A DNA stretch of 32,134 nucleotides from a virus (lineage: Duplodnaviria > Caudoviricetes), in the IMG/VR virus record IMGVR_UViG_3300034060_000806, positions 1-32,134 of that record; one strand, 5' to 3'. The translations under genes and the position numbers were made by a program. Under the pieces are notes generated by a model. That model did not search any database and was not told where the DNA came from. It was given only the letters and a program-made list of their open reading frames with translations. Positions 11,591 to 32,134 of the stretch are shown piece by piece (position 1 is the first letter of the stretch; each line of letters starts with the position of its first letter).

Positions 11591-11935
11591 ATGGAACTCA
11601 CCTCAGACCTCATCGACGAAATCTGCGAAAAGATCACCGACGGCAACTTCCCCTTGACCGCCGCAATTGCCTGTGGAGTCGCAACCCCGCAATACAACGA
11701 ATGGATCCGCCTCGGCAACACCGAAATCAATTCCATTTCGGAAGGCAACAAACTCAACGAGAAGAATGCGATTTACGTTCACCTCGTCACCCAAATAGCC
11801 ACCGCTGAAGCAACCGCAGAGTCCCGAGCCGTCGCCTTTTGGCAAAACCATGTCTCCGAGAACTGGCAAGCCGCCCGAGACTTCCTCGCTCGCCGCTACC
11901 CGGCCCGCTGGTCAAACAACCCACCTCAGCAATGA
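11591..11935 (+). CDS. TerS-like HTH protein 1
   Basis: LT..LIDEICEKI..G....AAIACGV....YNEW...G and WQAARDFLARRYPARW. Confidence 0.55.
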   Translation: MELTSDLIDEICEKITDGNFPLTAAIACGVATPQYNEWIRLGNTEINSISEGNKLNEKNAIYVHLVTQIATAEATAESRAVAFWQNHVSENWQAARDFLARRYPARWSNNPPQQ

Positions 11936-12918
11936 CTTCGGTACCCGGTCGACCATCGAAACGACCAACAGCAGCCGTAGTGAAACGAATATGCGATCAG
12001 ATCCGTGCAGGAACTTACCCTCACGTCGCAGCAGCAGCCGCCGGAATCGCCCCATCCCAATTCGATGACTGGATGCGAATCGGTTCAGGCCCCAACCCAC
12101 CCAAGTTGTACGCCGACGCCCACGCCGACGTAACCGCTGCCATGGCCGTCATGGAAACCAAAGCCGTCACATCCGTACTGGTAGGCATGGCAGATGACTG
12201 GAAGGCCGCTGCATGGTGGCTGGAACGCTCCCGACCCTCCGTATGGGGCAAAGGCACCACACGCCGCACCAAAAAGATTCCCAACGAACCTGAAGACCTC
12301 ACCCCCGAACCCATCCAAAACGCCGGGGTACAGAAACAACACGTCGAAGAGTTCAAAAAGATCCTGCTCCGCAAACGCCTCATGATTCATGCCGTTGACG
12401 GTGCCTGCTATGTCCCCTTCATCGGAGACGCCGACATAGCCACAGAAATCTACACAGACCGCAAAATCTATGGGGCCGACATTAAACAAGCCCGAGTCGA
12501 CATCGCCCGCACCCGACTCCCCAACGCCGACATTCGAGTCTTCGACTGTGACGAGTGGCCGTTCTCCGACATTCAAACAGAACCCACAGCAATCGCCGAC
12601 TTCGACGCCTTCAACTACCCCTACCATGCGTTTCGAGCCTTCATGGAACACGGCAACCCCTGTGACACCGTCGTCTGTTTCTTCACCGACGGAGCCCGAA
12701 TGCCCGCCCAACGCCTCGGTATCTACACCGACCCCGCAGGAATCAAGCACACTGGCCTCGATATCAAAGAGCGCCGCATCGTCAATAACCTTTACTGGCC
12801 CCGCATCGCTAAGCCATGGCTCATGGAATGGGCTAAGGCAAATGGCTGGAAAGTCATCACAACCTCGTTCTACCTTAGGGACCGAATCATCTACTGGGGT
12901 ACAGTTCTCAAACGCTGA
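11932..12918 (+). CDS. TerS-like HTH domain fused to a SAM-dependent methyltransferase-like domain
   Basis: N-terminus GRPSK..IRAG..AAAAAGI..WKAAAWWLERSRPSVWG; C-terminus YVPFIGDADIA, IYGADI, DFDAFNYPY (Rossmann-like). Confidence 0.55.
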   Translation: MTSVPGRPSKRPTAAVVKRICDQIRAGTYPHVAAAAAGIAPSQFDDWMRIGSGPNPPKLYADAHADVTAAMAVMETKAVTSVLVGMADDWKAAAWWLERSRPSVWGKGTTRRTKKIPNEPEDLTPEPIQNAGVQKQHVEEFKKILLRKRLMIHAVDGACYVPFIGDADIATEIYTDRKIYGADIKQARVDIARTRLPNADIRVFDCDEWPFSDIQTEPTAIADFDAFNYPYHAFRAFMEHGNPCDTVVCFFTDGARMPAQRLGIYTDPAGIKHTGLDIKERRIVNNLYWPRIAKPWLMEWAKANGWKVITTSFYLRDRIIYWGTVLKR

Positions 12919-12951
12919 ATCCGTAAATCCCGTGCCATAGAAAGGATTCCG

Positions 12952-13371
12952 ATGGCTGCAACACCGGCAAAACGCAAAGAAAAGTTCGATGCGATCAAAA
13001 AAGAGGAATACCTGAACCTGCTTCGCAACGGGGGACGCCGCCATGTCTCGGCCCGAACCGTTGGCATTGACCCCACAACCGTCCTTGACCACATGAACAA
13101 ATATCCCGAGTTCGCTGACTCCGTTTCCCGAGCGGAGATGGAAGCCAACGAAATGGTCGAAGACGCCCTGTATCAAGCCGCCGTCGCCGGACACGTCACC
13201 GCCTGCCAAGTGTGGCTGTACAACCGAATCCCACAGAACTGGGCCGACAAACGCAATATCAAAGTCCAAGGCGATGCGAACAACCCTGTGCAAGTCCACA
13301 CAACTGTCGATCCTGCCGAGTTAGAAGCAAAGGTGCAGGCTGTCCTGAAGCAGCGCAATGACCGCGGTTAG
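12952..13371 (+). CDS. terS: Terminase small subunit
   Basis: GAAAGGA RBS; HTH followed by VEDALYQAAVAGHVTACQVWLYNRIPQNWADK; overlaps terL. Confidence 0.7.
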   Translation: MAATPAKRKEKFDAIKKEEYLNLLRNGGRRHVSARTVGIDPTTVLDHMNKYPEFADSVSRAEMEANEMVEDALYQAAVAGHVTACQVWLYNRIPQNWADKRNIKVQGDANNPVQVHTTVDPAELEAKVQAVLKQRNDRG

Positions 13372-14980
13372 TACCAGCCTCTACGAAGATTTCCTGAGAG
13401 CCACCCCGGCCGCTCGAATGCGATTGCTTAACAAACTGTCGCCCAGTGAACGTGCCGAATTCGATCTTGTGTTGCAGGAAGAACTTTCTCACCCGTGGTT
13501 TCGTTATGCCCGTGACCCGGTGGGCTTTGTCCGTGATGGCCTCGGGGAAACCATTTGGTCCCGTCAGGCTCAGATCCTCGAATCGGTTCGGGACAACAAA
13601 CGAACTGCCGTACCCGCCTGTCATGCCCCCGGTAAGTCCCACATTGCCGCTAGAGCCGTCTCATGGTGGATCTCTTGTCATGCACCCGGAACGGCTATTG
13701 CGATCACCACGGCCACCACACACCGCCAAGTCCGAAACATTCTGTGGCCCCACATTCGCCGAGTCGCAGTGAGACACAACCTGCCCGGTGAAGTTTTAAC
13801 GACGACATGGAAACTGGACGACGACATCGTTTCCTACGGCTTCTCCCCTTCCGACTATGACGAAACGGCCGTGCAGGGCATCCACGCCCCCCACTTGCTC
13901 ATCGTCGTCGACGAGGCTGGCGGCATCGGACCAATCATCGGCCAAGCCTTAGAAGCCCTCATGACCGGCTCTCACACCCGACTACTATTGCTCGGTAACC
14001 CACCAACCGACTTGGAAGGCTCATGGTTCGAGAACGCCTGTGGGTCAGCGAACTACAACGTCATTCCTATCAATGCGTTTGACACCCCGAACTTCACTGG
14101 CGAAGACGCCGGAATCTGCCACGCCTGCCCGCCTTCAGTGCCTCAGCACTCAGTAGCCACCCACCTTGTCGACCGGGAATGGGTCGAAGACGTCATATCC
14201 GAATTCGGTGAAGAGTCCCCATTCGTTCAAGCCCGTGTATTTGCCCGTTTCCCACGCCAAGTATCGAACAAGGTCATTCCCTTCGATTGGGCTGAAGCGG
14301 CCTCTCAGAACGAATCACCGACCGAATCAATGCGAATCAGGCTCGGAGTCGACGTCGCCGCTGACGGTGGAGACGAATTCGTTATCGCTTGGGCTGACGG
14401 CTACCGGGTTTCCATCAGGCACAACTCATCAGGTTCCGTGAACGCCAACCCTGTCGACGTCGCCGGGAAAATCCTTGAACACATTCATCAGGCCGAGAAG
14501 ATCCACGTCGAAAGGGAACTAACACAGCCGGTTCGAGTCAAGATCGATGCGATTGGTGTCGGCTGGGGTGTCACCGGGATGCTGCAACGCTGGAAAGACG
14601 AGCGTCGCCATGGCGCTGAGATCATCGCCGTCAACGTCGCCGAACGATCCGCTTTCCCCGACAAGTTCCACAATCAACGAGCCGAAATGTGGTGGAACGG
14701 CCGAACCTTGGTGCAACCGGCACCTGACGGCGCTCAGGAGATGCGTTTAGACATTGACCGTCGGGCTATCGCCCAGTTGTCAACCCCGATGTACAAGTCG
14801 GACTCTGCCGGTCGAATCCAAATTGAGAAAAAGTCGGACATGAAACGCCGGGGACAAACCTCCCCTGACCGTGCCGAGGCCGTCCTGCTGGCCGTCTTCG
14901 AGCCTCCGGGCCATGTCGCCCCTCCTGCTGTGCCTGCGATTCAGTTCAAGCAATCAAATGACTGGAATATCAACATTTGA
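13358..14980 (+). CDS. terL: Terminase large subunit
   Basis: Walker A ACHAPGKS, Walker B LIVVDEAG, LLLGNP, nuclease LGVDVA, C-terminal SPDRAEA. Confidence 0.93.
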   Translation: MTAVSTSLYEDFLRATPAARMRLLNKLSPSERAEFDLVLQEELSHPWFRYARDPVGFVRDGLGETIWSRQAQILESVRDNKRTAVPACHAPGKSHIAARAVSWWISCHAPGTAIAITTATTHRQVRNILWPHIRRVAVRHNLPGEVLTTTWKLDDDIVSYGFSPSDYDETAVQGIHAPHLLIVVDEAGGIGPIIGQALEALMTGSHTRLLLLGNPPTDLEGSWFENACGSANYNVIPINAFDTPNFTGEDAGICHACPPSVPQHSVATHLVDREWVEDVISEFGEESPFVQARVFARFPRQVSNKVIPFDWAEAASQNESPTESMRIRLGVDVAADGGDEFVIAWADGYRVSIRHNSSGSVNANPVDVAGKILEHIHQAEKIHVERELTQPVRVKIDAIGVGWGVTGMLQRWKDERRHGAEIIAVNVAERSAFPDKFHNQRAEMWWNGRTLVQPAPDGAQEMRLDIDRRAIAQLSTPMYKSDSAGRIQIEKKSDMKRRGQTSPDRAEAVLLAVFEPPGHVAPPAVPAIQFKQSNDWNINI

Positions 14981-24551: not shown

Positions 24552-24592
24552 GAAGGCCCTCGGGAACCGCCTCCCGGGGGCCTTCGCTATTT
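24552..24592 (+). terminator. Intrinsic terminator-like hairpin
   Basis: 14-bp stem GAAGGCCCTCGGGA / TCCCGGGGGCCTTC followed by GCTATTT. Confidence 0.65.
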
Positions 24593-24617
24593 GCTGTTGG
24601 TGTTGTATCTTCCGTGC

Positions 24618-25484
24618 ATGACTGATTTCCATGCAGAACTTGTGGCCGATCTCAATGCGATTGGTGTTGAGGTTGAAAAGGCGAAGATGTCTCGCTCCGA
24701 GGCCGGTCGTGTAGCGGCGAACGCCCGTTGGGGAAACAAGGGTGGCGCTCCAAAGATGGTTGACTGGCGTTCGGCAGCAGGGATCTCTGCCGCTGAGCAA
24801 AAGTCCAATGCCCGCTCGAAGTCGGCGATGCAAGGCGCACGCACTCGGGCTCAGAACAAAGAAGCAAACACCCGCACCCCGGGGAGCATCCAAGCCGAAA
24901 TGGAACGCGCTGGCGTCCCCAAGAAAACGATTGATGCGATCACCAAAAACCCTCTCGGTTCTGCCTCAGCGAAAGCAACGGCGGCTCACATCAAACGAGT
25001 AAAAGACGTCAACGGTCTGTCTTCGAAGCAAAAGGCCAAGTACAACGAAAAAATGGATATGGCGACGCCCGGGATGAGCCCGGACATGAAGCATCAAGAC
25101 GCCATTACATACGCTTTAGATGCAAAGGCGGCTAGACCACGCGCTACTGCTGCCCGTGCCGCAGCATCCGCACGATTCAAAACAGTCGCCTCTCAAACTT
25201 CAGGCAAAAAAGTATTTACTTCTTCAACAGTTCCCAACCCGGGCATGAGGGCACCAGTATCCGCCCACAAAGAGGCTATTGCCGCGGCTGAATATCATTT
25301 AGAGAACTCGAAGTTAACTGGCGCTCAAACAAAGAAACTCAACAACACTGTCAGACGTTCAAAGGATGCGATTGATCGGCTTGAACGTCCCGAATACAAC
25401 GCCTTAAAAGACCGTGCATTAAGAGATATGCCAAGCCGAAACAACGGAGGAAGTCGTGGCACGGGATACCTTGTCGGAAGATGA
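24618..25484 (+). CDS. Basic Ala/Lys-rich protein sharing its leader and AANARWGN tag with the giant protein
   Basis: TATCTT lies 6 nt before the ATG (leaderless-type); MTDFHAELVADLNAIGVEVEKAKMSRSEAGRVAANARWGNKG. Confidence 0.7.
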   Translation: MTDFHAELVADLNAIGVEVEKAKMSRSEAGRVAANARWGNKGGAPKMVDWRSAAGISAAEQKSNARSKSAMQGARTRAQNKEANTRTPGSIQAEMERAGVPKKTIDAITKNPLGSASAKATAAHIKRVKDVNGLSSKQKAKYNEKMDMATPGMSPDMKHQDAITYALDAKAARPRATAARAAASARFKTVASQTSGKKVFTSSTVPNPGMRAPVSAHKEAIAAAEYHLENSKLTGAQTKKLNNTVRRSKDAIDRLERPEYNALKDRALRDMPSRNNGGSRGTGYLVGR

Positions 25485-25497
25485 GGTCACGGAGCCA

Positions 25498-28400
25498 ATG
25501 GCTAAAATTTTTCACGAACGGTTGATCGCTGACCTTGAAGCCATGGGTTATGCGATTGGCCCTGTCACTAAAGCCGACACTTACACACCCCCCGAGGGTG
25601 TGCAGTCTGCTGCCCGACGGGCCCTGAAACTCATTGCTGACGGTCACGCTGGTGACGGTTTTACTGATGTCGGCCGTAAACGTGCCTCAGACCTTGCTGC
25701 TGGCCGTTCAGTGAGCCTCAATACGGTGAAACGTATGCACTCCTATTTCGCCCGTCATGCCGTCGATAAGCAAGGCAAAGACTGGGACAACGCTGAGAAA
25801 CCATCGCCGGGGAAGGTTGCTTGGCTCGCTTGGGGTGGCGATGCCGGTAAGTCTTGGGCTGATGCGATTGTCGATCGTGACAACGTGACTAAGGCGTACA
25901 AACGGAAATATGCCACTCGCGAAGAGGCTGCACGCGCCGCCGCCAACGCAAGGTGGGGCAATCGAACGCCTGATGTACCTGAGGTCAAAGAAAAGCCGAC
26001 CAAAAAAGTCGATCCCGTCAAAGAGGCTTACCGTGCTTTCCAAGCGGAAGCCAAAAAGAAAAAGAACCTTGAAAAGACTTTGGAACTCGAAAAGGTTTGG
26101 CTGAATGCTGTCCGTGATAATGCTCCACCTAAGGGTGACTGGCGTGAATGCGATTCAATCAAAGAAGCAAAAGCACAGTTCTACGGTCAAGGTTGGATGA
26201 CCGAAGTTCATTTCGGGAAATTGTCTGTTCCGATGGTCAACGAAGTTTGCAAGACATGGAACGAACTCGGAACGAAATATCCGGAAGTTGCTGCTTACGT
26301 TGAAGTCCTTGGTGGGCATAGCGGTTTGCGTGATGCAGGGGAATTGCCGGTAAAAAAGTTTTCTGCCTTAGGCACCGCCTTTTACGGTCCTCGCACGATT
26401 GCCTTAAATGACTCTTATTCGCGTGACCAATACGAAGATTTTGCTCAACGTGCCGCAGCGACGGGGTTTCACCCTCCGAGAACCGGAGCGAAGGGTGACG
26501 GCGTCAGGTCCGTTCTTGTCCATGAGTTTGGGCACATGGTCGGTCGGAAAACGGGTTTGTCACAAACAGAGGCTGCTATCAAAGAAGTGCGTTCAAGTCG
26601 CCCTGCTGGCATTAGAGAAAAAACTGTAAAAGAATTCACCAAAACCAATCTTTCTGAATACGCCACTAGAAATTCTGACGAAGCCTTTGCTGAGGCCTTC
26701 ACCGAATACCACATGAGCCCTAACCCTCGGCCTCTTGCTACCGCAATCGTTGAACGCTCATTTGATGCGATTGGTAAGACCGAGTGGAAACGAGACACTG
26801 TCGCCAAGGCGTACAAACGGAAGTACGCAACTCGGGAGGAAGCGGCTCGGGCGGCCGCTAATGCTCGCTGGGGTAACCGGACGCCGAAGGTTGATGCTCC
26901 AGCCGAACCCGCCGGACCGGTAATCGAGCCGTGGGTCGATCAAAAATCCGCTGCCGCTGTCGACAGGGAATTCAATCGACGTTGGGGCAATCGCACATTG
27001 ATGCGTTTGACTGGCCTTTCACCCGAAGCCGCTAACGGCTCTGCCGAGGCAATCAACGAATTACTGACCCTGTATCCGGACACGACGTTGCATTTGGTTG
27101 GCACTCAAACCGGTATTTCACAGATGATTAAATCAGGTACCTATCCGCCCGGAACTCCTGAGAGTGTCAAGTCCCTTGCATCTCGGGGCCGTTACCCGAA
27201 AATGAATTTAAGTGAGGGTGGCGATTACTCCCCCCAGTTGCAATTCATTCGAATCAATAAGAACAATCACTCGTCCGATGGTTACGGAAGTGTTTCGACG
27301 CGACTCTCCGAGGAAACAGGTTGGTATACGCCAACTGGTTTTCCAGTTGGCGCAGGTCAACCTGAAGGCATTCGTCACGCAGCAAAACGATCGATGGTTC
27401 ATGAGTTCGGCCACGCGATTGACTTACACCCAAAAAGGAATTCTCTTCCAAGTGATTTCAGCAATTCAAACAATCCAATTACTAAAGCAACCCGAGAAAT
27501 CACTGGCGCTCCGGCAAGTTCCGCTGCGGCAAACAAAGCGGTTATCGAAACCAATATTGGAACCTACGCCGCCACCAATGCAAAAGAATTGTTTGCTGAG
27601 ACTTTCACCGAATACCACATGAACCCTGCGGCCCGTCCGTTGTCTGTTGATTTCGTGAAGTTTCGGATGGGTGAAATTGGGGTGCCTCTTGCTGCTCCGT
27701 CAACGCTTGGCACGATTGCTAAGGCTTACAAGCGGAAATATGGATCTCGGGCCGAGGCTGCCCGGGCCGCAGCGAACGCTCGCTGGGGAAACAAGGGCTC
27801 TGCAACACAGGAAACTTCCGCAGCCGATGATGCGGTTTACAATCCGTCACCCAAAGAGATGTTGGCCGGAAAAACTGCAAGCGGAAGAAAACTTAGAAAC
27901 ACGTTTTCCCAAACGCCGGTCAACGGTTACAACATAGAAACCGATCCTCGACCTTTCGGTTCAGCACCGGAACATTTGAAACGTGGCGCTCTTCTACTTC
28001 AAGGCACCGGACAGGCTTTATGGCAGGTCACTTCCGTCAAGGGAGACGTCTTGCGCTCAAAGCCGGTTTACGACAAATACGGACGCAAGATTTACAAGCC
28101 CGGGACTTCACAGTCATTGCTTCGTCAGTATTGGGATAATGTCACGGCCGTGAAAGGAAACGCTGCCGATCTTCCCGATCAAGACGATGCGATCGCTAAG
28201 GCGTACAAGCGGAAGTACGCGACTCGTGCTGAGGCTGCACGCGCGGCCGCGAATGCACGTTGGGGAAACAAAGGCTCAACTTCTACTGCTGCTCCTGCCG
28301 AGCCCAAGCCACAAATTACTAAAGAGACCGACAAGGTTCTCCGCCAGTTTGCCCAAGCCGGATATGCCGCACAAACCGGTATGGGCATGAGGCAACAAAA

Positions 28401-30294
28401 AGGCCAATTGCACGTCGGTGTTGACGACACATCTGTGACGATCACGGATCTTTATGCGATGCAAAAGTTTCCCCGGTCGGATCCCCGAGCCAAGGCTTTG
28501 TTGGCTTATCAACCTGAAGGCAAATCAAGTTTCACTGTCAAAATCGGCAAAGGAGGCAAAGTCGGTTTGCATCCGGAGCAAAACGGTCCTGATATGAACT
28601 CTTCAACAATTGATGAACTGACCAAAAAGTCCCGTGTCGACATTGGTGGCTTCAAACCAATCCCCACAATTGAGGGCAGCAAACAACAGTACGTTGCTAC
28701 CGAAGTCAAAAACCCTAAGACAAAAGAAACTGCAACTGTTTATTTGCGACGGGATCAGTACGACGGGATTCTCGCCAGTCAACCTCCCGGAACCGAATTG
28801 AAAGTCGGTTTTGGAGAAAATTATCGAGGCAAATCCCGGATACTTTCTGTTGTCGCTATCAATAATGGCGAGAAAGTCGCTGCCGTCATGGCTATGGGCC
28901 CAAATTTTGATCCCACTACTGGGGGCGATGGAAGGCTGACGGTGAAGAAGGTTGTCTCTGTTCACGATATGAGGGCACCTGTCGAAGACGATGCGATTAC
29001 CAAGTTTGTTTCTTCAAAGCGTTCTGCTGCCGGTCGTAAGGCTGCCGAGGCTCGATGGGGTAAGCGTCTAAAGAAATTCCCGAAAGCATTGGGACGGATG
29101 ACGCCACGGCAGCGAGCAAGTCTGATGCTCAGTGCCGATAAGCCTGCAAAGGTCAAATTCGTGGGCCCTGAAGGCAAGACAGAAGAGGCGCTCCGTGACG
29201 ACGCCGGAAATGTTGTAACTGAGCGCATGAACCCTTCGACCGAGTACAAGCGACGTCTTTACGGGTCGGATTCTTGGGTTCAAACGGGCAAGGGCCCGGT
29301 GCTTGGCCCGAAGTTGAAGCGCAAGAAGAAGGTTCAGGGAAACGCTGTTCGAGAACTTGCACGGGTGCGGTTTGCCGATGCTCCTGTTCAAAAGGCTGGT
29401 GATCGTTCTGCTGCTGGTCGTAAGGCTGCCGAGGCTCGATGGGCAGGTCATCAAAAAAAACAAACTCAATCATCACCGCCTGCTGACAAACCAATTTTCA
29501 GCAGAGAAGAACACGCTATTGCTATTGCCTTGGTTGAACGAGTAGCGATTGAAGAACCGGCCCTGACGAAACAAATGGAAGATTTCGCCGAGGAATTTGG
29601 TGGTGAACTGACCGGTTTGCAGAACCGATTGAAGAAGTCGGGCTCTTTGGCTCGTAAAATCCATATGGATGCGATTGAAAAGAGTCTTTCTCCGGAGGCT
29701 GCCGCTGCTCAAATAAAAGATGCTGTCCGGTACACAATGATTCTGCCTGACACTAACTACGGTTTGTCGGGCCAAGCAATTGTTGATAGGCTCAGAGCCG
29801 AAGGAAATGACGTAAAAGTCAAAAATACTTGGTCCCCTGATTCTGAATACAAGGGGATTAACTTGCAGGTGTACAACAAGAAAAAAGGATTTTGGTCTGA
29901 ACTGCAACTGCATACGCCGCAATCATTTGCTACAAAAAACGAAACTCACAAGATTTATGAGTTAGAGCGGGTTGAAAAAGATCCCAAGAAAAAAGCGTTG
30001 TACACAGCGCAGATGAAAGCGGCCTCCGGCAGTTTGCGTATTCCGCCCCGGGCCGAAGTCATCAAATCAAAGGAGGACAGCATGAAAGAAATTTGGTGGA
30101 AACGGGTCTCAGACGATGGGGAAACTGTTTACAGCGTGTGGCACGCTCACGGCCCTGAATCGATGATGGAAAAGAATTATGCCGGTGAATGGGTCGACGC
30201 TTCCGAGCAGTACTTCACTCCGTTCGAAGAGACCGATTTCATTGAAATTTCAGAAGACGAAGTCGAAGCCGTCTTGAAAGACTTGACGGCCTAA
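25498..30294 (+). CDS. Giant multidomain (polyvalent-type) protein: conserved phage N-domain, two HEXXH zincins, unknown domains, RelA/SpoT-like nucleotidyltransferase, acidic tail
   Basis: About 1598 aa; HEFGH at 26521 and 27400, each followed by YA..N..E.FAE.F; RLKK..SLARKI, DAVRYT, YKGIN, ELQLHT, HKIYE; six repeated basic linkers. Confidence 0.85.
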   Translation: MAKIFHERLIADLEAMGYAIGPVTKADTYTPPEGVQSAARRALKLIADGHAGDGFTDVGRKRASDLAAGRSVSLNTVKRMHSYFARHAVDKQGKDWDNAEKPSPGKVAWLAWGGDAGKSWADAIVDRDNVTKAYKRKYATREEAARAAANARWGNRTPDVPEVKEKPTKKVDPVKEAYRAFQAEAKKKKNLEKTLELEKVWLNAVRDNAPPKGDWRECDSIKEAKAQFYGQGWMTEVHFGKLSVPMVNEVCKTWNELGTKYPEVAAYVEVLGGHSGLRDAGELPVKKFSALGTAFYGPRTIALNDSYSRDQYEDFAQRAAATGFHPPRTGAKGDGVRSVLVHEFGHMVGRKTGLSQTEAAIKEVRSSRPAGIREKTVKEFTKTNLSEYATRNSDEAFAEAFTEYHMSPNPRPLATAIVERSFDAIGKTEWKRDTVAKAYKRKYATREEAARAAANARWGNRTPKVDAPAEPAGPVIEPWVDQKSAAAVDREFNRRWGNRTLMRLTGLSPEAANGSAEAINELLTLYPDTTLHLVGTQTGISQMIKSGTYPPGTPESVKSLASRGRYPKMNLSEGGDYSPQLQFIRINKNNHSSDGYGSVSTRLSEETGWYTPTGFPVGAGQPEGIRHAAKRSMVHEFGHAIDLHPKRNSLPSDFSNSNNPITKATREITGAPASSAAANKAVIETNIGTYAATNAKELFAETFTEYHMNPAARPLSVDFVKFRMGEIGVPLAAPSTLGTIAKAYKRKYGSRAEAARAAANARWGNKGSATQETSAADDAVYNPSPKEMLAGKTASGRKLRNTFSQTPVNGYNIETDPRPFGSAPEHLKRGALLLQGTGQALWQVTSVKGDVLRSKPVYDKYGRKIYKPGTSQSLLRQYWDNVTAVKGNAADLPDQDDAIAKAYKRKYATRAEAARAAANARWGNKGSTSTAAPAEPKPQITKETDKVLRQFAQAGYAAQTGMGMRQQKGQLHVGVDDTSVTITDLYAMQKFPRSDPRAKALLAYQPEGKSSFTVKIGKGGKVGLHPEQNGPDMNSSTIDELTKKSRVDIGGFKPIPTIEGSKQQYVATEVKNPKTKETATVYLRRDQYDGILASQPPGTELKVGFGENYRGKSRILSVVAINNGEKVAAVMAMGPNFDPTTGGDGRLTVKKVVSVHDMRAPVEDDAITKFVSSKRSAAGRKAAEARWGKRLKKFPKALGRMTPRQRASLMLSADKPAKVKFVGPEGKTEEALRDDAGNVVTERMNPSTEYKRRLYGSDSWVQTGKGPVLGPKLKRKKKVQGNAVRELARVRFADAPVQKAGDRSAAGRKAAEARWAGHQKKQTQSSPPADKPIFSREEHAIAIALVERVAIEEPALTKQMEDFAEEFGGELTGLQNRLKKSGSLARKIHMDAIEKSLSPEAAAAQIKDAVRYTMILPDTNYGLSGQAIVDRLRAEGNDVKVKNTWSPDSEYKGINLQVYNKKKGFWSELQLHTPQSFATKNETHKIYELERVEKDPKKKALYTAQMKAASGSLRIPPRAEVIKSKEDSMKEIWWKRVSDDGETVYSVWHAHGPESMMEKNYAGEWVDASEQYFTPFEETDFIEISEDEVEAVLKDLTA
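25885..28269 (+). repeat. Four 26-aa repeats [VI]xKAYKRKYxxRxEAARAAANARWGN
   Basis: At 25885-25962, 26800-26877, 27715-27792 and 28192-28269; the copies use different synonymous codons. Confidence 0.95.
29020..29443 (+). repeat. 40-bp near-identical direct repeat encoding RSAAGRKAAEARW
   Basis: 29020-29059 versus 29404-29443, one mismatch. Confidence 0.9.
30082..30294 (+). CDS. Putative in-frame internally initiated 70-aa acidic protein (immunity-like)
   Basis: AAGGAGG (30070-76) lies 5 nt before an in-frame ATG immediately after the RelA/SpoT-like domain. Confidence 0.55.
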   Translation: MKEIWWKRVSDDGETVYSVWHAHGPESMMEKNYAGEWVDASEQYFTPFEETDFIEISEDEVEAVLKDLTA

Positions 30295-30351
30295 CCGGGG
30301 TAGGGTATCTTTGTGGTGCGGGGAGCGGGGGCTCCTCCGGAAAGGGACATC
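30283..30351 (+). promoter_or_regulatory. Promoter cassette G
   Basis: TTGACG-17-TATCTT with CCTAACCGGGGTAG in the spacer; hairpin GGGGAGC-GGGG-GCTCCTC; GGAAAGG. Confidence 0.8.
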
Positions 30352-31098
30352 ATGTACAAGCGTTTCGCAGGGCTCTCAGCACCGAAACGATGCGTTTCCA
30401 CTGCCTGCTACCGCTGCGGCGGCACCGGCTACGTCCACCCATGGGGCACCTGTTTCCGCTGCGGTGGTGCCCAAGTCGACCCGAGCCACAAGGATTTCGG
30501 TTACCCGCAAACGTGGACCGACGCCGAAATCGAAGAATGGGACCGGGCTCGTCGGGCCAAGAACGAAAAGGCCCGGGTCGCCCGGGAGGAACGTCTCGCC
30601 GTCAAGAAAGCCGCCAAGTTCGCTGAGAACCTCGCCAAGTGCCCCGAGTTAGCCGACATCAAAGATTACGGCGGAATCCTCGGAGACCTTCGGGAAAAGG
30701 CTGAAAAGTACGATCTCAGCCCCGCTCAGTTTGAACTGGTCGCCAAACTGGTGGCTCAGGACAAGGCTTATGCGATTGCCAAGGCCGCTCAGGTCGAAGC
30801 CGACGCTCACCTCATCTACATCGGCGAGGTCGGCGAGAAGATCACGATCACTGGCACAGTGAAGGTCGCCAAGGCAATTGACACTCAGTTCGGTCTCAGT
30901 CGCCTCCTGATCGTCGCTGACACCGACGGCAACCTCATCAAAGCCTTCACCACCGCCCAGTTCGTTTGGGATCTCGAAGCCGGTGACGAGGTCACGCTGA
31001 TCGCCACGGTCAAGGCCCATGAGGTCTACGAGGATGTCAAGCAGACGGTCATCACCCGGCCGAAACTGATTGAACATAAGCAACTGGTGGATGCCTGA
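30352..31098 (+). CDS. Zn-finger (CxxCxGxG) plus C-terminal OB-fold-like protein
   Basis: CYRCGGTG..CFRCGG; C-terminal IGEVGEKITITGTV..GDEVTLIATVKAH..KQTVITRPK. Confidence 0.7.
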   Translation: MYKRFAGLSAPKRCVSTACYRCGGTGYVHPWGTCFRCGGAQVDPSHKDFGYPQTWTDAEIEEWDRARRAKNEKARVAREERLAVKKAAKFAENLAKCPELADIKDYGGILGDLREKAEKYDLSPAQFELVAKLVAQDKAYAIAKAAQVEADAHLIYIGEVGEKITITGTVKVAKAIDTQFGLSRLLIVADTDGNLIKAFTTAQFVWDLEAGDEVTLIATVKAHEVYEDVKQTVITRPKLIEHKQLVDA

Positions 31099-31204: not shown

Positions 31205-31269
31205 CACACCTAACCGTGGTGTGGTACACTTGTGTCGGGAGGAAAGGGATCCTCCCCGAAAGGAACCTC
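31205..31269 (+). promoter_or_regulatory. Promoter cassette H
   Basis: CACACC-TAACCGT-GGTGTGG-TACACT; hairpin GGGAGGA-AAGGGA-TCCTCCC; GAAAGGA. Confidence 0.85.
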
Positions 31270-31512
31270 ATGGCAATGACACCCGAACAACGTAAGGCAG
31301 CAGCCGCCAAGGCCGTCGCCACTCGCCAAGCCCGCAAGGCAGCAGCCGCCGCCGATGCGATTGGCAAGATCAAACAACGTGCCGGATTCTCCGCCTACGC
31401 CTGCCCCCAATGCCGCAACACGGTTTACGTCAAATCCGCCAAGGCCGACGTTTACCACCGCTGCCCATCGTTCGGCCTCAAATGGGTCGACTACATCCTG
31501 ATCTCCGAATGA
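31270..31512 (+). CDS. Small basic protein with a Zn-ribbon-like C-terminus
   Basis: ATG after cassette H; Ala/Lys helix followed by CPQC..HRC. Confidence 0.65.
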   Translation: MAMTPEQRKAAAAKAVATRQARKAAAAADAIGKIKQRAGFSAYACPQCRNTVYVKSAKADVYHRCPSFGLKWVDYILISE

Positions 31513-31523
31513 AAGGAAACCTG

Positions 31524-31832
31524 ATGCGATTAACTCGCTTCAAACGCAAGTACATACTTCGCACCGAGTTCGATGCCGATGGGACATGGACGCCAGTGAC
31601 GGTCGACGAAGTGTTCGGCCGCAACCCTCAGATCACCGACGCTCACGCTGCTTTCGCTAAGTACGCAGTGGTTGACGAATGGAACCAGTACGGCCCTACC
31701 GAGATCCGGGGCCGCACCTACCGTCTAGCCGTGTACAAGAAGCGGGGCTCTCGGATGCGATTGATTCAAACTGAGCAGATCCCCCCGACTCGCCCGGTTG
31801 ACTTGACTAACGTCGAATGGCCCAAGCCCTAA
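31524..31832 (+). CDS. Hypothetical protein
   Basis: GAAAGGA RBS at 31511. Confidence 0.6.
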   Translation: MRLTRFKRKYILRTEFDADGTWTPVTVDEVFGRNPQITDAHAAFAKYAVVDEWNQYGPTEIRGRTYRLAVYKKRGSRMRLIQTEQIPPTRPVDLTNVEWPKP

Positions 31833-31886
31833 CCCCGGTGTGGTACCGTTGGAGTGAAGGGCAGGGGCTCTTCGGAAAGGAACAGC
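31827..31886 (+). promoter_or_regulatory. Promoter cassette I
   Basis: CCCTAACCCC-GGTGTGG-TACCGT; hairpin GAAGGGC-AGGG-GCTCTTC; GGAAAGGA. Confidence 0.8.
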
Positions 31887-32134
31887 ATGACCGAATGGCA
31901 AGCATCACCAAAGGTCAGAGAATTCAAGGCCCAACGAACGTCACTTCGAAAGAACACGCCTCGGCCCGTCACTCAGCGAGTTCGTTCTTTCTCCGGAATC
32001 GTGTGGCGTAAAGTTGACAGTCAAGTTGAGCAAGGGCGTTGCCCTCACGCCCACTCCAAGCCGTCAAGCGCAACAAAATGCGCCGAAGCCCTTGCCAAAA
32101 GGCTGAACCGGGCAGCCAAAAGGAGCAACAGTGA
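31887..32134 (+). CDS. Hypothetical basic protein (3' truncated)
   Basis: ATG after the cassette I SD; frame is open to the window end (MTEWQASPKV). Confidence 0.6.
   Translation, partial: MTEWQASPKVREFKAQRTSLRKNTPRPVTQRVRSFSGIVWRKVDSQVEQGRCPHAHSKPSSATKCAEALAKRLNRAAKRSNS

Follow-up and report, generated by a model that had tools for sequence, protein, structure and literature searches.

In-frame fusion of an Apk-type synthetase to a putative IapK/Tis1-family immunity domain in a phage head-type polyprotein

The last enzyme module of a 1612-residue phage open reading frame, which an earlier note on this DNA did not describe, is an apparent Apk/toxSAS-type synthetase that continues without a stop codon into a 70-residue domain resembling the IapK/Tis1 immunity proteins, and this domain retains a ribosome-binding site and a start codon of its own (Table 1). 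The fusion is real and is more than chance. The fusion, the ribosome-binding site, the intact active site and the recurrence of the arrangement can be read from the sequence itself, and the family and the binding of the tail are supported by prediction. A toxin-immunity fusion of the Apk type was not found in print.

Table 1. Features of the polyprotein gene and its fusion junction. Positions refer to the window, i.e., the whole stretch of 32,134 nucleotides that was analyzed; a slash in a motif marks the candidate cleavage point.
Feature	Positions	Strand	Remarks
Phage polyvalent, head-type polyprotein	25456..30294	+	1612 aa; modules headed by [VI]xK/[AF] and a basic ...AAAxARWG repeat
Alternative start ATG of the polyprotein	25498	+	1598 aa
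phrog_2859 N-terminal domain and first repeat	25561..26025	+	
Zincin metallopeptidase-like domain 1 (HEFGH)	26491..26730	+	Pfam PF07737, E 1.5e-8; MPTase-like by inference
Zincin metallopeptidase-like domain 2 (HEFGH)	27391..27627	+	Pfam PF06167/PF07737 stretch
VQK/A motif and basic ARW repeat heading the synthetase module	29386..29448	+	
Apk/Tas1/SaEAS-type small alarmone synthetase domain (predicted)	29503..30066	+	active-site residues match SaEAS
VIK/S, natural synthetase end and candidate processing site	30058..30069	+	TCA, not a stop codon, at 30067-30069
Internal Shine-Dalgarno AAGGAGG	30070..30076	+	5 nt upstream of the in-frame ATG
Putative IapK/Tis1-family immunity domain	30082..30294	+	70 aa; own start codon, in frame with the synthetase

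The polyprotein and its fusion junction

The open reading frame has the trait of polyvalent proteins, with several unrelated effector domains, a zincin peptidase among them, in one chain near virion genes. Its neighborhood contains WhiB, portal and MuF genes, and records carrying the phrog_2859 domain, from aquatic phages, are annotated as major head protein or capsid maturation protease. None of 73 loci with the same N-terminal domain has a synthetase or immunity domain. The earlier note had linked the synthetase to MuF-associated toxins. This link does not hold for the reading frame itself, which has no match to PF04233 or TIGR01641 in Pfam and NCBIfam, the MuF domain (PF04233) being encoded by a separate gene about 4.3 kb downstream. 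Given that it has no MuF domain, the protein is not Apk2 by definition.

All the synthetase motifs (RLKK at 29626, SLARK at 29644, DAVRY at 29719, YKGIN at 29848, ELQLHT at 29899, HKIYE at 29947 and VIKS at 30058), the AAGGAGG and the tail lie in one frame of the + strand, as had been noticed before. The tail, from the ATG at 30082 to a stop codon finishing at 30294, ends in ...EDEVEAVLKDLTA (KDLTA), five residues beyond the end quoted in the earlier note. The claim that no stop codon precedes this ATG is borne out. In Logan contigs, which are consensus sequences and not raw reads, four of four lake runs bridge 30067-30069 with no other letter; these runs are not marked as a possible source and may belong to one sampling campaign. 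An IMG/VR contig shows no difference in 1001 of 1001 bases, and the identical fused protein is present in JGI, ENA, NCBI and Logan records, on contigs of up to 56.8 kb. Three diverged alleles (P0002, P0200 and P0201), with synthetases 86-98% identical, are also fused; their linker residues have changed with no stop having arisen, and none of the four alleles has lost the catalytic residues. No RNA holder of the sequence was listed.

The AAGGAGG is one of two on the + strand of the window, and the combination of a ribosome-binding site with an in-frame ATG or GTG occurs a single time in the whole 4.8-kb reading frame. In relatives the tail start codon is exchanged between ATG and GTG (Met/Val), and stand-alone versions of 69-70 aa were found. 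Because of the ribosome-binding site, this exchange and the stand-alone versions, an internal start is well supported, and initiation at ATG 30082 probably occurs. It had been proposed that the antitoxin is made both tethered and free; the tethered form stands with the fusion, and the free form would be produced from this start. The small separate immunity gene known from behind Apk2 has its counterpart here in a homologue that is in frame, with no stop codon between. Near-identical tail genes without a synthetase in front also occur; their DNA, and that of two further fusions (P0057 and P0082), was not found, as the viral scans yielded nothing beyond the identical contig or an unfused relative and all three matches of the one metagenome scan were chance matches.

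The synthetase and its predicted inhibitor

The exported alarmone synthetase SaEAS (PDB 8VX3) is the best match of the synthetase domain both by sequence (E 8.9e-17) and by fold (Z 21.9, rmsd 2.6, 196 aligned), followed in fold by Tas1 (Z 14.0, rmsd 2.6, 164 aligned). Residues D1422, R1425, K1454, N1469, E1482 and Q1484 correspond to the active-site residues of SaEAS. The identity to the MuF-Apk2 C-termini of Streptococcus and Mannheimia phages is 36-39%, and the Apk SYNTH motifs are present as DAVRYT (RYT), YKGIN (GxN) and ELQLHT, which has xH rather than IR; RYT and GxN are Apk signatures (PMC12226406). Pfam gave no RelA_SpoT family on this domain, and NCBIfam gave only a partial match, far below cut-off, to the RelA-like end of XopAD-family models. 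The earlier assignment to RelA/SpoT-like, Apk/toxSAS-type domains is supported by sequence and modeled structure, with the catalytic residues intact. It had also been stated that the product cannot be fixed from sequence. We agree, and the evidence tilts to (p)ppApp, which is likely the product, in a family where related enzymes differ in what they make. According to PMC11782079, inhibition of the Tis1 type at the acceptor site goes together with enzymes that produce (pp)pApp.

The tail scored 16.6 bits over its full length on a profile of 66 sequences built without it, above all 1992 scored shuffles (best 11.6); this profile was seeded with syntenic phage homologues and not with the exact tested IapK proteins. 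Full separation from the shuffles was obtained with this profile only: on a 28-sequence profile the tail scored 10.6 bits and one of 1996 shuffles was higher, and on a profile of four IapK-like proteins it scored 5.7 bits with shuffles reaching 10.3, i.e., with no separation. In hhalign, the tail gave 92.3% (E 5.4e-7) against the larger, 66-sequence profile, and in another comparison 73.7% versus 27.7% for the best of 100 column shuffles. Its model (pLDDT 82.6) has the Tis1 fold, a small beta sheet and a C-terminal helix. Among 48,161 chains, Tis1 itself (6OX6_B) ranked third in a tie with the first and second; its Z of 5.4 is middling taken alone (rmsd 3.2, 63 aligned). Foldseek gave no match for the tail at E 0.001, and Pfam has no family for it, nor for the four phage IapK-like proteins. 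The first match in the ESM Atlas (0.84) is a lead only, with PF24154 Tis1_ImmP in 11% of members.

The predicted complex of synthetase and tail scored 0.83, versus 0.00 for the best of three controls, with contacts agreeing to at least 90% and a partner pLDDT of at least 87. The mark used is reached by 116 of 157 solved pairs and 2 of 215 mismatched pairs, and the score may reflect memory of, or likeness to, Tas1-Tis1 (6OX6). The predicted interface includes the catalytic Asp, the G-loop Tyr, the GxN Asn and the ELQ Gln, so that the tail is predicted to cover the active site. The view of the tail as immunity-like is supported, by profile, fold and predicted binding, in the form of an IapK/Tis1-family domain.

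Candidate processing and possible roles of the fusion

The motif [VI]xK/[ASF] heads seven repeats and the leader of the polyprotein, and it also heads the repeat of the MuF protein and that of the reading frame at 24591. The portal does not have it, nor do 13 of the 15 other proteins of the window that were checked. Outside the repeats there are 4 of 11 matches, about the number expected by chance (mean 2.9); two matches lie inside zincin domains and one inside the synthetase. The junction differs from the repeat sites in having Ile versus Thr, Ala or Gln at P2 and Ser versus Ala or Phe at P1'. At other synthetase ends [VI]xK[AS] is rare (7/284); [VI]xK alone is common at unfused ends (60/284). 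A second fused lineage has [VM]AK at its junction and similar motifs at its module borders, a pattern written down after that junction was seen. Among phage prohead proteases, some cleave behind the Lys of xxK/S. No prohead protease or major capsid gene was found in two partial contigs (39% and 48% complete). The head proteins of phage DSL-LC01 do not have the motif at the capsid propeptide and lend the protease no support, and no paper was found on XkdF cleavage or on a virion-packaged ppApp synthetase with a protease. VIK/S is plausible as a cleavage site, with a motif that marks module boundaries, and we place cleavage at the junction a little short of an even prospect. A cut alone need not dissociate a tight toxin-immunity pair, and a tight complex could be ejected together.

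We slightly favor the following mechanism as a whole. A lake phage of an Actinomycetota host would make a late, head-associated polyprotein, the last enzyme module of which is an active Apk-type synthetase. With the cognate IapK/Tis1-type immunity gene joined to its end in one frame, yet still equipped with a ribosome-binding site and start codon, each toxin molecule would be born with a tethered inhibitor on the acceptor-nucleotide site, and a pool of free inhibitor would be made besides. The polyprotein would be packaged in the virion, which is fairly likely, and is probably cut into modules at [VI]xK/[AS] sites during head maturation, possibly at the junction too. The synthetase piece would retain the basic targeting repeat and the inhibitor piece has none; the enzyme would therefore be ejected into the next cell without inhibitor and act there unless that cell already holds the immunity protein. 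More tentatively, the module may be read as a zymogen: aquatic phages would have repeatedly joined a (p)ppApp synthetase covalently to a Tis1-type inhibitor in a head polyprotein, their own maturation protease would cut a lineage-specific site, the untagged inhibitor would stay behind while the armed enzyme is injected, and free inhibitor or orphan copies in rival phages would decide which cells are immune. If true, this would explain how virion-borne toxins spare the producing cell and arrive active.

Both proposals compete with the possibility that the fusion arose by accident from translational coupling and is tolerated, a one-base change at the ATGA overlap usual for toxin and immunity genes having brought the two into frame. 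What is selected would then be the free immunity protein from the internal start, as a protection from related phages' toxins; the fused enzyme would be permanently self-inhibited or only leaky, with no cut at the junction. We consider this unlikely, though several features are consistent with it. The immunity gene is separate in 62 of 121 loci, and in 24 of 59 separate pairs the two genes share four bases, with the ribosome-binding site in the toxin's last codons. Known Apk2 ends resemble the junction linker, tail genes exist without a synthetase, and fusions are a minority (5 among the best 150 representatives; 3/131 unique loci). However, the catalytic residues are conserved across the diverged alleles, and the fusion arose repeatedly: in-frame fusions recur in about five synthetase lineages, and a single origin is rejected, as judged on quick trees. 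Moreover, the loss of a stop codon alone does not produce the arrangement of L037/L040/L068, P0013 and P0118, where the immunity domain is embedded in a long polyprotein and followed by additional modules; L037/L040/L068 have no clear ribosome-binding site ahead of this domain. Even as a tolerated accident, the fusion would be a real, recurring architecture of modest interest.

A self-inhibited toxin-antitoxin in one uncut chain, like CapRel, activated in the infected or lysogenic cell when a rival-phage protein displaces the tail, is improbable. Fused toxSAS switches exist, as PMC11782079 describes for CapRel, and the fused module has a short linker and is modeled well (mean pLDDT 88.9, pTM 0.74). 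Against this, the module belongs to a head-type polyprotein and follows packaging-like repeats that are also in the MuF protein, a switch of this kind would be damped by excess free inhibitor made from the internal start, and the inhibitor is Tis1-like, whereas CapRel, according to the same source, modifies tRNA and has a pseudo-zinc-finger antitoxin on the donor site. The weakest alternative, an ordinary two-gene pair in which a sequencing or assembly error hides the stop, is very improbable: the TCA at 30067 is one base from TAA or TGA and a separate gene is the rule, yet the bridging contigs, the identical records and the three fused alleles rule out such an error at the level of assembled contigs.

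Whether phage Apk toxins enter the virion and how they lose the immunity protein is an open question (PMC10083569), which a natural toxin-immunity module in one chain, with its candidate protease site, opens to direct tests of cut versus uncut and tethered versus free forms. Because it is self-neutralized, the module should be easy to clone and purify.

Comparison with known systems

The closest systems are the Apk2-IapK(-Aph1) MuF toxin loci of temperate phages (PMC12226406, PMC10083569), which have the same synthetase family with RYT and GxN, an immunity protein of 68-72 aa of the same family directly behind it, and a similar head-gene context. The present reading frame differs in having no MuF domain, in carrying the immunity domain in frame and not as a separate gene, and in its 1612-aa polyprotein carrier; a search of the two partial contigs (39% and 48% complete) for the HD-domain aph1 gene (PF13328) gave no match. 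Tas1 (Apk1)-Tis1 of Pseudomonas aeruginosa type VI secretion (PDB 6OX6) is alike in both folds and in the predicted binding at the active site, whereas the present case is a phage gene with no PAAR domain and with toxin and immunity in one chain. SaEAS of Streptomyces albidoflavus (PMC12691689), the closest solved structure, carries a signal peptide, lacks an immunity protein and produces both alarmones.

The polyvalent proteins of phages (PMC5512222) are alike in combining many domains, among them zincin peptidase-like modules and a RelA/SpoT domain, in their late-gene position and in their predicted processing into units; the available part of that paper makes no mention of an immunity domain fused behind the RelA/SpoT domain. 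CapRel shares the toxic synthetase and antitoxin in one polypeptide, but it is a defense gene, and in the accessible portion of PMC11782079 neither an internal start nor a head polyprotein is described for it. CapRel aligns to residues 7-193 of the model only, and its pseudo-zinc-finger antitoxin with anchors has no counterpart in the Tis1-like tail. Beside CapRel, the present fusion is a second and independent kind of fused toxSAS; its inhibitor has another fold, and it has arisen several times in uncultured phages.

Junction and candidate internal start of the fused tail

The synthetase and its tail lie at the 3' end of one polyprotein ORF, and all of the synthetase motifs quoted in the earlier note are in its frame. 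The expectation that no stop codon precedes 30082 was borne out, as a contig spans the junction without a differing letter in four of four runs not marked as a possible source (assembled contigs, possibly from one campaign). The DNA is present in 24 listed lake-water runs. An IMG/VR contig with the same junction is identical over 1001 bases, and the identical fused protein is recorded in several sources. The fusion also occurs in three diverged alleles, with the linker EIIKSKEGGM in P0002 and EIIKSKENGM in P0200 and P0201; mutual identities, window included, are 86-98% for the synthetases and 86-91% for the tails. The synthetase-tail fusion is real, and it is both conserved and recurrent.

Features of the polyprotein region and its surroundings
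Feature	Location	Strand	Description
ORF before polyprotein	window 24591-25484		297 aa, basic; overlaps polyprotein start; acidic leader, VEK/A motif and ARWG repeat as in polyprotein
Polyprotein	window 25456-30294	+	single ORF, 1612 aa
Zincin modules	window 26491-27627		two intact HEFGH domains, in polyprotein
VIKS	window 30058-30069	+	synthetase-tail linker
AAGGAGG RBS	window 30070-30076	+	directly 3' of VIKS, 5 bases before ATG
In-frame ATG	window 30082	+	start of 70-aa tail, C-terminus ...EVEAVLKDLTA
Two-part intergenic element	window 30290-30354, 31209-31272, 31828-31889		CCTAACC...TG.GGTA, then GAAAGG, ATG
Head genes	window 11839-14980; L001 9658-12503		dispersed
MuF protein	L001 11092-12503		repeat, then module similar to zincin modules; truncated by contig end

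The RBS and ATG at 30070-30082 are the only in-frame combination of an RBS with ATG or GTG in the whole 4.8-kb ORF. In relatives this codon position exchanges Met and Val, as between ATG and GTG starts, and stand-alone tail versions of 69-70 aa are recorded. Translation from ATG 30082 would yield a free tail. Of the proposal that the antitoxin is made both free and tethered, the tethered form stands, given the fusion in all four runs, and the free form is probable in view of the RBS, the Met/Val exchange and the stand-alone versions. In separate toxin-immunity pairs the RBS usually falls within the last codons of the toxin, with a four-base overlap in 24 of 59, and the fusion is therefore most simply a coupled pair moved into frame.

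Close copies of the tail gene (window 30057-30293, 76-96% identical) occur in the lake runs X7 and X10 and among proteins P0004-P0010 and P0161-P0184, with unrelated sequence and no in-frame synthetase upstream of 30057 but with the VIK[SA] linker and RBS retained; these are possibly orphan immunity genes of related phages. Most of the variation in the frame upstream of them is at second codon positions; the leaders of 21-54 aa that gene callers assigned are therefore probably not real.

Synthetase and immunity domains

The top PDB sequence match of the synthetase is SaEAS (8VX3, E 8.9e-17), whose active-site residues, named in PMC12691689, map onto D1422, R1425, K1454, N1469, E1482 and Q1484 of the polyprotein. 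The model of synthetase plus tail (pLDDT 88.9) aligns with SaEAS (Z 21.9, rmsd 2.6, 196 aligned) and Tas1 (Z 14.0, rmsd 2.6, 164 aligned), with RelP/SAS1 next. The synthetase shares 36-39% identity with the C-termini of MuF-fused proteins from phages of Streptococcus and Mannheimia, and it carries the Apk-enzyme signatures RYT and GxN (PMC12226406). Sequence does not fix the product, as the earlier note had held, because altering these motifs did not switch specificity (PMC12226406) and relatives differ, some making both alarmones and others (p)ppGpp only (PMC12691689). Tis1-type inhibitors are tied to (pp)pApp producers (PMC11782079). The product is probably (p)ppApp; (p)ppGpp or a mixture is rather unlikely, and action on tRNA highly improbable.

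In four phage loci with apk2 layout, a 68-72-aa gene lies directly behind the toxin; its products were taken as IapK by synteny and are distinct from the experimentally tested IapK proteins. The tail is 26% identical to one of them (E 0.002), and on a profile from these four seeds it scored no better than shuffles. For a larger profile, ORFs were collected according to where they lie after related synthetases, from 161 loci comprising the 80 best of 199 viral ones, the 80 best of 144 genomic ones and one more. Of these loci 131 are unique, and 121 have 200 bases or more past the stop. A separate ORF of the tail's family is found in 62 of the 121, and in 54 of the 92 with a C-terminal synthetase. 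Against the 66-sequence profile, made without the tail and its alleles, the tail reached 16.6 bits over residues 6-68, with all 1992 scored shuffles lower (best 11.6), and hhalign gave 92.3%; the column-shuffle control, confined to an earlier 28-sequence profile, gave 73.7% for the tail versus 27.7%. With the tail folded alone, Tis1 comes third among 48,161 chains (Z 5.4, rmsd 3.2, 63 aligned), tied with two unrelated entries, and a Foldseek search returned no significant match. The profile score and the place of Tis1 among the top fold matches support an immunity-like tail, as first proposed.

The two-chain prediction of synthetase with tail scored 0.83 versus 0.00 for the best control (contacts in agreement at 90% or more, partner pLDDT 87 or higher), the mark being one reached by 116 of 157 solved pairs and 2 of 215 mismatched pairs; this pass may reflect likeness to the solved Tas1-Tis1. 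At the predicted interface lie the catalytic Asp, G-loop Tyr, GxN Asn and ELQ Gln, together with the Ser of VIKS and the first two tail residues, an arrangement that would fit binding in cis.

Recurrence of the fusion and polyprotein context

Among 107 in-frame stretches behind synthetase domains (a redundant set; the best of 535 shuffles reached 10.5 bits, the next 6.1), the immunity family is fused twice in P0013 (22.6 and 22.5 bits) and also in P0057/P0185 (19.7), P0118 (17.4), the window's alleles (16.0-16.7), L040/L068 (15.3, 15.0) and P0082 with its cluster (14.1-14.2); L037 shares the junction of L040/L068. Fused cases number five among the best 150 of 3208 representatives and three of 131 unique loci. 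A quick tree built from 63 synthetases calls for five changes of the fused label, of which strong branches force at least two. A single origin was rejected by an AU test on 27 rows picked after that tree was seen (p 1.4e-10 for one fused clade). P0057 and P0082, both fused, are 52% identical, with an unfused relative adjacent.

P0013 and P0118 are phage polyproteins of 1.8-1.9 kaa carrying inteins, the former with a tandem pair of synthetase-immunity units and the latter with an additional immunity-like domain before its second synthetase. Long or tandem synthetase ORFs occur in several viral loci (L029, L037, L040, L048, L059, L068, L076, L082, L090); L037, L040 and L068 encode polyproteins with DUF6321 and GNAT-like modules, the module content varying by strain.

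The window covers part of a phage genome, with tape measure, tail genes, replication initiator and terminase, and an overlapping contig contributes WhiB, portal and MuF, which suggests an Actinomycetota host. The supposed MuF association does not hold for the polyprotein itself, which has no MuF domain, MuF being on the overlapping contig. Its N-terminal domain also occurs in aquatic phage head proteins, and its seven basic ARW repeats are each preceded by [VI]xK/[AF], a head shared with the MuF protein and ORF 24591, for which no Pfam or PHROG family matched. In P0200 the first zincin module is absent between two repeats and another module is exchanged, so the modules shuffle at repeats. No aph1 was found in the two contigs (39% and 48% complete). 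Between the terminase subunits and the later portal and MuF genes are some 18 kb containing lysis and unknown genes. The two-part intergenic element, likely a phage promoter cassette, precedes three small genes downstream of the polyprotein.

Candidate cleavage and relation to known systems

Cleavage at VIK/S, by which a phage protease would cut off the tethered inhibitor and the armed enzyme would be injected, is a tentative reading. The [VI]xK/[ASF] motif marks module borders in this and other freshwater phage modular proteins, and [VI]xK[AS] occurs at 7 of 284 other synthetase ends versus all four window-type alleles; [VI]xK alone, however, is found at 60 of the 284. A second lineage (L037/L040/L068) has [VM]AK at the junction and similar motifs at module borders, by a pattern drawn up post hoc. 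Prohead proteases of other phages cleave many packaged proteins (PMC10052503), but the two partial contigs contain no prohead protease gene and the literature search found no work on this motif. Against a cut also stand the four matches outside repeats, which are at chance level with three inside folded domains, and the junction's differences from the repeat sites at P2 and P1'. A cleaved pair would, moreover, remain a non-covalent complex; for release, the untagged tail would have to be lost or the pair to unfold during ejection.

A fusion between an Apk synthetase and a Tis1/IapK domain was absent from the literature searched, consisting of main texts with few subscription papers, and from the available parts of PMC10083569, PMC5576092, PMC3482391 and PMC11699363. 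Within that literature the in-frame fusion appears new, its component systems being already known. Apk2-IapK, Tas1-Tis1, SaEAS, CapRel (its paper being PMC9712102) and polyvalent proteins each partly match the fused module. In its predicted action the module resembles Apk2-IapK; it departs from Apk2 in having no MuF domain and no separate immunity gene. The modular, repeat-shuffled build of the polyprotein fits phage polyvalent proteins (PMC5512222).
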